This document shows, piece by piece, positions 20,242 through 21,319 of a DNA stretch of 64,000 bases; position 1 is the stretch's first letter; every line of letters begins with the position of its first letter. The stretch is from Escherichia coli (GTDB taxonomy: Bacteria > Pseudomonadota > Gammaproteobacteria > Enterobacterales > Enterobacteriaceae): the NCBI RefSeq assembly GCF_029227855.1, contig NZ_CP074356.1, one strand, 5' to 3'. The notes beneath the pieces are model-generated. The model had not been told where the DNA came from, ran no database searches, and worked only from the letters and a program-made list of their open reading frames with translations. The translations under genes and the position numbers were made by a program.

Positions 20242-21319
20242 TCACGGCAGGCGGTGGCGGGCTTGATAATAAGCCTGCCAGTGAGCTTCTTTATGTGTGG
20301 CGACACGCTGTTCGAAGTAACGGCGCAGACGCGCGCGATCTTCTTCGTTATCTTTAACGATGGTTCCGGCAATACAGTCCACCAGATCGGCTGGCTCACC
20401 TGCGCGATTCGCTAAAAACCAGGCGCGGACGCCCACTGCGTGGGCCACGTTCACGGCTTCAGCGGTGGATATAATTGCCGTCAGAGTATCCATTGACGTT
20501 TTCTTTTCGCCGTTGGCACGCAGATCGCGGAAGGTGCGGACCAGTAACTCCAGTACCGCGTCAGGCACTTTATGCGGAATACCGCTATGGGCCAGCAAAC
20601 GCGCCGAAGCACTGGCGACCAGTTCCAGCTCCTGGGCGAAATCCATAATCGGAAAGACGGTTTCAAAATCGAAGCGACGCTTTAGCGCGGCACTCATCTC
20701 ATTGACGCCGCGATCGCGGGTATTGGCAGTGGCAATAATATTAAAGCCTTCCCGCGCATAGAGCTGACTGGCTTCACCGGTGAGTTCCGGCACCGTCATC
20801 ACCCTGTCAGAAAGCATACCTAACAGACAGTCTTGTACTTCCAGCGGTGTACGCGTTATCTCTTCAAAACGGACGATTTTGCCGTCGCGCATTCCCTGGT
20901 AAAGCGGGGCAGGGACCAGTGCTTCCGTAGACGGACCATGGTTGATAAGCAGGGCGTAGTTCCATTTGATCTTCAGTAGTAGATGCGCCGCCCTGGATGG
21001 TTAACCCGGCATCGCCGCTAATAGCGGTTGCCAGTAATTCAGACAGGAGAGATTTTGCGGTGCCCGGTTCCCCCACCAACATCAAACCGCGCCCGGTGGC
21101 AAGAGTGACTAACATACGTTCGACAGCGGAGGGACTAATCACCACTTTACGGCTAATATTTTGCGCGCTATCGCCAAGGATAAAAGCACGGGCCGCAGGC
21201 AAACTTAACTGCCAACCGGGCGGGCAAGGTGCGTTATCATTTTGTTTTAATTTTGCCAGTTCATCGGCGTATAACACAGCAGCAGGCGGACGCTGCAGAT
21301 GATTATTCTGCGGTGACAT
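20242..21319 (-). pseudogene. yehL: yehL (MoxR-family AAA+ ATPase) split by a frameshift near 20860-20975
   Basis: ORF-track pieces 20864-21385 and 20242-20892 are in different frames and overlap by 29 nt; span is 1078 nt (not a multiple of 3); Walker [11 protein letters not shown] in the 5' piece. Confidence 0.65.

Follow-up and report, generated by a model that had tools for sequence, protein, structure and literature searches.

MoxR proteins are AAA+ ATPases divided into seven subfamilies, one of which takes its name from YehL, itself one of the two MoxR proteins of Escherichia coli K-12 (PMC3893208). RavA, which belongs to a different MoxR subfamily from YehL, binds ViaA, and ViaA stimulates its ATPase activity (PMC3893208). 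RavA–ViaA and yehL–yehP are alike in that a gene for a MoxR AAA+ ATPase adjoins a gene for a VWA protein (YehL with an AAA_5 domain, YehP with VWA_CoxE). However, the yeh island additionally encodes DUF5682, SWIM and DUF4132/WGR proteins. By analogy, YehL presumably works with its VWA partner on a client. A search of the literature retrieved no functional study of yehL, yehM, yehP or yehQ, nor of DUF5682 or DUF4132. With PADLOC-DB v2, no family matched YehL, YehM, YehP, YehQ, YehI or YehK at E <= 0.01, and a known anti-phage defence system was rejected as an identity for the island because no PADLOC model matched.

In K-12, the yeh locus is silenced by H-NS (PMC3686432), and regulation of molR by BglJ-RcsB has been reported. 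Lesions are known in this island from other lineages. In lineages 2 and 3 of Shigella sonnei, yehM-yehL have been removed by a deletion of approximately 7 kb (PMC12795559). K-12 itself carries a pseudogene, yehH (molR, yehF/yehH), created by a 1-nt insertion. Both cases affect the same island as the lesion described below, but they arose independently in other lineages and differ from it in the genes affected and in mechanism. The yeh island erodes repeatedly in different lineages.

Here we analyse the yehL gene in a 64,000-nt stretch of an E. coli genome (contig NZ_CP074356.1, assembly GCF_029227855.1), hereafter the window. The whole yeh island of the window is collinear with that of MG1655, where the orthologue of yehL, b2119, lies at the same locus (metG ... 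yehI-yehK-yehL-yehM-yehP-yehQ-yehR) with the same start and stop. That yehL can be a pseudogene is already known, and the case is one of ordinary gene decay: PGAP annotates the gene as 'frameshifted' in M217, strain 219 and JNEC-KY178. The RefSeq records B7R44_RS09030 (M217) and AC0J0T_RS08520 (JNEC-KY178) carry that label with the same coordinates and are 100% identical over 1,251 bp, the M217 pseudogene (6132-7209) corresponding to 21319-20242 of the window. What is added here is the exact lesion, its distribution and its apparent status as a secondary hit after yehM.

An 11-bp deletion in the AAA+ core of yehL

The gene, the lesion and the reading frames that result from it are located in the window as follows.

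20242..21319, minus strand: yehL pseudogene, MoxR-family AAA+ ATPase of the YehL subfamily (full-length alignment to MG1655 b2119; PGAP)
20964..20965, minus strand: junction of the 11-bp deletion (alignment to K-12; alternative placement 20964/20963)
20864..21385, minus strand: 5' open reading frame, 173 aa, containing GEPGTAKS (open reading frame list)
20864..21319, minus strand: 5' yehL reading frame from the ATG, with 118 native and 33 out-of-frame residues, then TGA at 20866-20864
21050..21073, minus strand: Walker A motif (P-loop) GEPGTAKS, residues 83-90 (read from the sequence and its translation)
20242..20892, minus strand: 3' open reading frame from Met147, 216 aa (open reading frame list; AAA_5 profile match)
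20860..20877, minus strand: Walker B codons I-V-R-F-E-E, residues 152-157 (placed by alignment to AAA modules of midasin)

In the window, yehL measures 1078 nt (1 modulo 3) between its start ATG at 21319, equivalent to that of K-12, and its stop at 20242; the intact gene measures 1089 nt. Its alignment to MG1655 yehL (b2119; 1089 nt, 362 aa) contains one 11-nt gap, no second indel and four amino-acid differences outside the lesion. The missing bases are nt 356-366 of the intact K-12 coding sequence, falling in codons 119-122 (I-K-Y-G). At this site K-12 reads GATCAAA[TCAAGTATGGC]TGGAAC, whereas the window reads GATCAAATGGAAC; the segment missing from the window is TCAAGTACGGC in its nearest relatives with an intact gene. 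A single T common to both sides leaves the junction with two possible positions, one base apart. The deleted segment is neither a homopolymer nor a simple repeat. A repeat-mediated origin of the deletion is unsupported, its flanks sharing only this 1-nt microhomology, in contrast to the 9-bp repeats found at a 48-bp deletion in yehM (see below).

The frame 3' of the deletion is +1 relative to the frame 5' of it. The gene thus has, relative to its intact orthologues, an indel whose length is not divisible by three, followed by a premature stop after 33 out-of-frame codons. In a preliminary description of this locus, made from the sequence alone, yehL had been reported as split by a frameshift into two pieces (20864..21385 and 20242..20892) lying in different frames with an overlap of 29 nt (20864-20892), and the distance from the likely start at 21319 to the stop had been given as 1078 nt. 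The open reading frame list agrees with these frames and their overlap, the length was reproduced, and the peptide strings quoted for both frames match the translations. The alignment to K-12 yehL that had been proposed as a check places the junction at 20965/20964, inside the span of 20860-20975 in which the indel had been expected, and identifies the frameshift as the 11-bp deletion.

The gene of the window is a member of the YehL subfamily of MoxR proteins both by its AAA_5 core and by its synteny with b2119. As a single chain, K-12 YehL matches the Pfam profile AAA_5 (PF07728) over profile positions 2-139 (E = 1.2e-33). The two pieces encoded in the window divide this match between them, the N-terminal piece covering positions 2-45 (E = 3.5e-08) and the C-terminal piece positions 64-139 (E = 4.1e-15). 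The deletion therefore sits in the AAA_5 core, with Walker A on one side and Walker B on the other. The assignment of Walker B follows from the alignment of G150-KIVRFEEI of YehL with the Walker B strands GHWVLLDEI and GRWVLIEDI of midasin; the 5' frame terminates within these codons, at its TGA. Two further stretches, NIIATAN and ALKRRF, look like the sensor-1 motif and the arginine-finger region, respectively, and we take them as putative; both are encoded together with Walker B in the 3' frame, on the C-terminal piece. No uninterrupted polypeptide encoded by the window's yehL contains both Walker A and Walker B.

Translation from 21319 would give the 118 native residues, comprising the N-terminal region and Walker A, then the 33 out-of-frame residues before the stop. 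Walker B, the putative sensor-1 and arginine finger and the C-terminal helical domain could appear only on a second polypeptide, the 216-aa fragment that starts at Met147. The native frame resumes at the junction (20964), but residues 123-146 have no accessible start codon, and residues 119-146 are absent from both the 151-aa and the 216-aa product. This segment, which joins strand beta2 to the Walker B strand, would be in no product, so neither piece should hydrolyse ATP or assemble. The ATPase had previously been called probably inactive. Considering that Walker A and Walker B are on separate pieces and that residues 119-146 are missing, inactivation is very likely, and we infer with high confidence that the ATPase function of yehL has been lost. 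The YehL (MoxR)–YehP (VWA) pair would then be non-functional.

Distribution of the deletion and of intact yehL

Complete E. coli genomes were searched by megablast with a 40-mer centred on the junction, a query that seeds a match only if the junction is present. The junction was found in 215 of the 5,426 genomes (approximately 4%), in every case at 100% identity and within yehL. The carriers were obtained from humans, dogs, cats, birds, cattle and water, in many countries and by many laboratories. In the wider collections (NCBI, ENA, Logan and JGI), the exact 151-aa product is encoded on at least 1,000 contigs, and so is the exact 216-aa product. The Logan and ENA contigs with these fragments are independent short-read assemblies, and the lesion is thereby reproduced in independent assemblies.

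Several of the carriers have been published as ST167, namely Sanji, AR_0149, AR_0150, AR_0151, AR_0162, WCHEC005237 and SCEC020007 (PMC6392093). All of these named strains match the yehL region of the window at 100%. Going by the K-12 map, we take the window to contain no Achtman MLST locus, and the assignment to ST167 applies to the named carriers and not to the strain of the window.

Of the 5,426 complete genomes, 5,218 (approximately 96%) carry yehL in some form. Among 60 records sampled at even spacing, 55 had the full span of 1089 nt and two the 1078-nt allele, the remainder being one gene of 1088 nt, one of 1091 nt and one truncated copy. Neither of the two circumstances that the preliminary description had named as speaking against a genuine frameshift was encountered. 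An assembly error is contradicted by the 215 complete genomes with the junction and by the number of contigs encoding each fragment. A two-frame arrangement of intact homologues is contradicted by the single chain of K-12 and by the 55 full-length records. As a separate observation, yehL spans of 1088 and 1091 nt and, in one case, the last 350 nt of the gene were seen in NZ_CM173951.1 (H165), NZ_CP028741.1 (H178) and NZ_CP075474.1 (H210); these changes in length could reflect separate disruptions of the gene or errors of sequencing.

Between the alleles of K-12 and of the window, dN/dS is 0.047 for yehL, 0.10 for yehM, 0.065 for yehP and 0.18 for yehI. As intact yehL is common and dN/dS is low, purifying selection acts on the yeh island in E. 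coli as a whole, and loss of the island is recent and lineage-specific. The intact gene is thus the conserved and selected state, as seen from the 55 of 60 full-length records, the dN/dS of yehL and the existence of the repaired protein in other strains (see below).

Further lesions in the island and their order

The damage in the window extends to the genes on either side of yehL, as shown by the following features.

18000..20231, minus strand: yehM pseudogene, DUF5682 (alignment to K-12; PGAP 'internal stop')
19560..19562, minus strand: amber codon in yehM, Ser224 TCG to TAG (comparison with K-12 and relatives)
18305..18313, minus strand: kept copy of the 9-bp direct repeat TGCTGGCGC in yehM, marking a 48-bp in-frame deletion
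22276..25906, minus strand: yehI pseudogene, DUF4132 (comparison with K-12; PGAP 'frameshifted')
16871..18007, minus strand: yehP, VWA (VWA_CoxE) partner gene, intact (VWA_CoxE match, E = 2.3e-72)
14874..16874, minus strand: yehQ, SWIM zinc-finger protein, intact, 666 aa (profile match, alignment)

The amber junction of yehM was found in 214 complete genomes, a total close to the 215 with the yehL deletion. The same gene has lost 48 bp in frame between two copies of TGCTGGCGC, an arrangement that looks like classic slippage. In yehI, a deletion reduces TTTTT to TTT at approximately 23549-23552 (minus strand) and splits a gene of 1210 aa when intact into open reading frames of 786 aa (23546..25906) and 442 aa (22276..23604). 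Lying at a homopolymer, this would be, of all the lesions, the one most in need of confirmation at the level of reads. With the yehM amber and the yehI frameshift, it is the whole yeh island that is decaying and not the ATPase alone.

The 48-bp junction in yehM and the 2-bp junction in yehI occur, among the 5,426 complete genomes, in JNEC-KY178 (NZ_AP045174.1) only, and M217 lacks both deletions. Over 21.4 kb, JNEC-KY178 and the window differ by four SNPs and no gaps (99.98% identity), and JNEC-KY178 is the sole complete genome that is 100% identical to the window over 18000-21400. With respect to M217, the identity of the window is approximately 99.9% over 27448-19170 and approximately 97% over 19170-14250. 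The abrupt drop suggests a recombination breakpoint in yehM at approximately 19170, and hence that the strain of the window is a mosaic of the yehL haplotype of the carrier lineage and a different yehP-yehQ-yehR haplotype.

No identical intact ancestor of the window's yehL was found among complete genomes, where the best match was 99.2%, and a 68-mer rebuilt with the K-12 insert likewise had no 100% match among them. In the wider protein collection, the repaired protein (the allele of the window with IKYG restored; P0046) exists exactly, on 49 contigs. Six of these were examined. Five of the six (L005-L008 and L010) combine an intact yehL with the same TAG in yehM, and in the sixth (L009) both genes are intact. 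Apart from the deleted segment, four synonymous SNPs separate the yehL of L005, L007 and L008 from that of the window, and over 13 kb L005 differs from the ST167 strain M217 by 18 SNPs and the 11-bp gap. In L007 (Logan SRR32334855, 7100-9379), where yehL is intact, yehM has acquired a second stop at codon 699 besides the amber, a case of yehM decaying secondarily and independently in a different sublineage.

Because relatives with an intact yehL already carry the yehM amber, the amber appears to be older than the yehL deletion. Going by these sequences, the most parsimonious order would begin with the yehM amber, continue with the yehL deletion and end with the yehI lesion together with the further yehM lesion. 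This order is one of parsimony over few haplotypes, and recombination could in principle give the same pattern. If it holds, the 11-bp deletion would have arisen in the background of an inactivated yehM, and the sublineage of the window would then have added the 2-bp deletion in yehI and the 48-bp repeat-mediated deletion in yehM. As the adjacent yehM would already have been dead, the yehL deletion is best read as a secondary, effectively neutral hit in an island that would by then have been released from selection. We consider it highly probable that yehL in the window is a genuine, vertically inherited pseudogene, produced by the 11-bp deletion in its AAA+ core as a second neutral hit in a decaying island.

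Explanations for the split gene, and its intact neighbours

An artefact of sequencing or assembly, with the 11 bases present in the organism and dropped from the assembly, can for practical purposes be set aside: the identical junction recurs in the 215 complete genomes, which many laboratories obtained from many hosts and countries, each fragment lies on its thousand or more contigs with independent Logan and ENA short-read assemblies among them, and a segment free of homopolymers and simple repeats is not a typical site of error. Recoding of a real lesion would take the form of a programmed +1 ribosomal frameshift, or of transcriptional slippage, within the 100 nt of 20864-20964, restoring a nearly full-length YehL. 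Both frames are open throughout the overlap, and the shift needed, +1, is of a type known in E. coli, where it occurs in prfB. Nevertheless, we give this explanation virtually no credence. The two-frame state is derived, being confined to approximately 4% of genomes with one identical junction, and elsewhere the gene is a single frame. By eye, the longest homopolymer in 20864-20964 is at most 4 nt, and a shifted product would still lack IKYG and have out-of-frame residues in the AAA+ core. Moreover, the next gene, yehM, is nonsense-mutated, so that nothing maintains the operon. A functional split gene, in which the products of 151 and 216 aa come together as an ATPase that is active or has a new function, is very improbable. 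Gene callers predict both open reading frames, and re-initiation is conceivable at the second ATG, which the first frame overlaps by 29 nt and which has AGGGA just 5' of it. However, this AGGGA directly abuts the ATG of Met147 with a spacer of almost zero, a poor spacing for a ribosome-binding site. Furthermore, the segment absent from both products corresponds to AAA_5 profile positions of approximately 46-63, the N-terminal piece ends in a 33-residue out-of-frame tail, and yehM and yehI keep gaining lesions in the same lineage, which is a signature of relaxed selection.

The loss itself might be adaptive, with inactivation of yehLMPQ positively selected in the ST167-related lineage because the island is costly or restricts plasmids or phages. 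Two independent knock-outs in adjacent genes, each in some 214-215 complete genomes including published strains of the high-risk clone ST167, are compatible with this, as are the deletion of yehM-yehL in S. sonnei lineages 2 and 3 (PMC12795559) and the broken molR/yehH of K-12. However, hitch-hiking in a successful clone fits the frequency equally well, and a single origin of the yehL deletion was seen. The cost of the island is likely small given its silencing by H-NS in K-12 (PMC3686432), and the searches of PADLOC-DB and of the literature provided neither a match for the island proteins nor a functional study. We therefore regard adaptive loss as very unlikely, and give as little weight to the wider proposition that the yeh island, as a conflict or quality-control system, has been knocked out stepwise under selection. 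If it were true, the multidrug-resistant ST167 lineage would have benefited from loss of the island, for example through tolerance of resistance plasmids.

Under the preferred reading of secondary, neutral decay, the yehL pseudogene alone is of little weight, being one lineage-specific case in an island silenced by H-NS. Its 11-bp junction is nonetheless a clean marker of the carrier lineage (215 complete genomes, including the published ST167 strains), and the apparently ordered lesions, from yehM through yehL to yehI and again yehM, illustrate neatly how decay can proceed once a first gene has been hit. Haplotypes found in nature that have none, one or several of these lesions are potential controls for studies of YehL–YehP as a MoxR–VWA pair.

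Other genes of the island differ between the window and K-12 in ways separate from this decay. In the window and in M217, yehQ encodes 666 aa (2001 nt), whereas it is annotated with 1845 nt in K-12, where the gene appears to be truncated at its 3' end. Upstream of yehI, the minus strand of the window contains a molR-like WGR + DUF4132 gene (25916-29710) and, immediately upstream of that, an additional DUF4132 paralogue (29723-33520). The molR-like gene is intact in the window (1264 aa), whereas K-12 has broken pieces of it, yehF and the pseudogene yehH. The additional paralogue encodes 1265 aa in the window and is absent from K-12 between metG and yehF.
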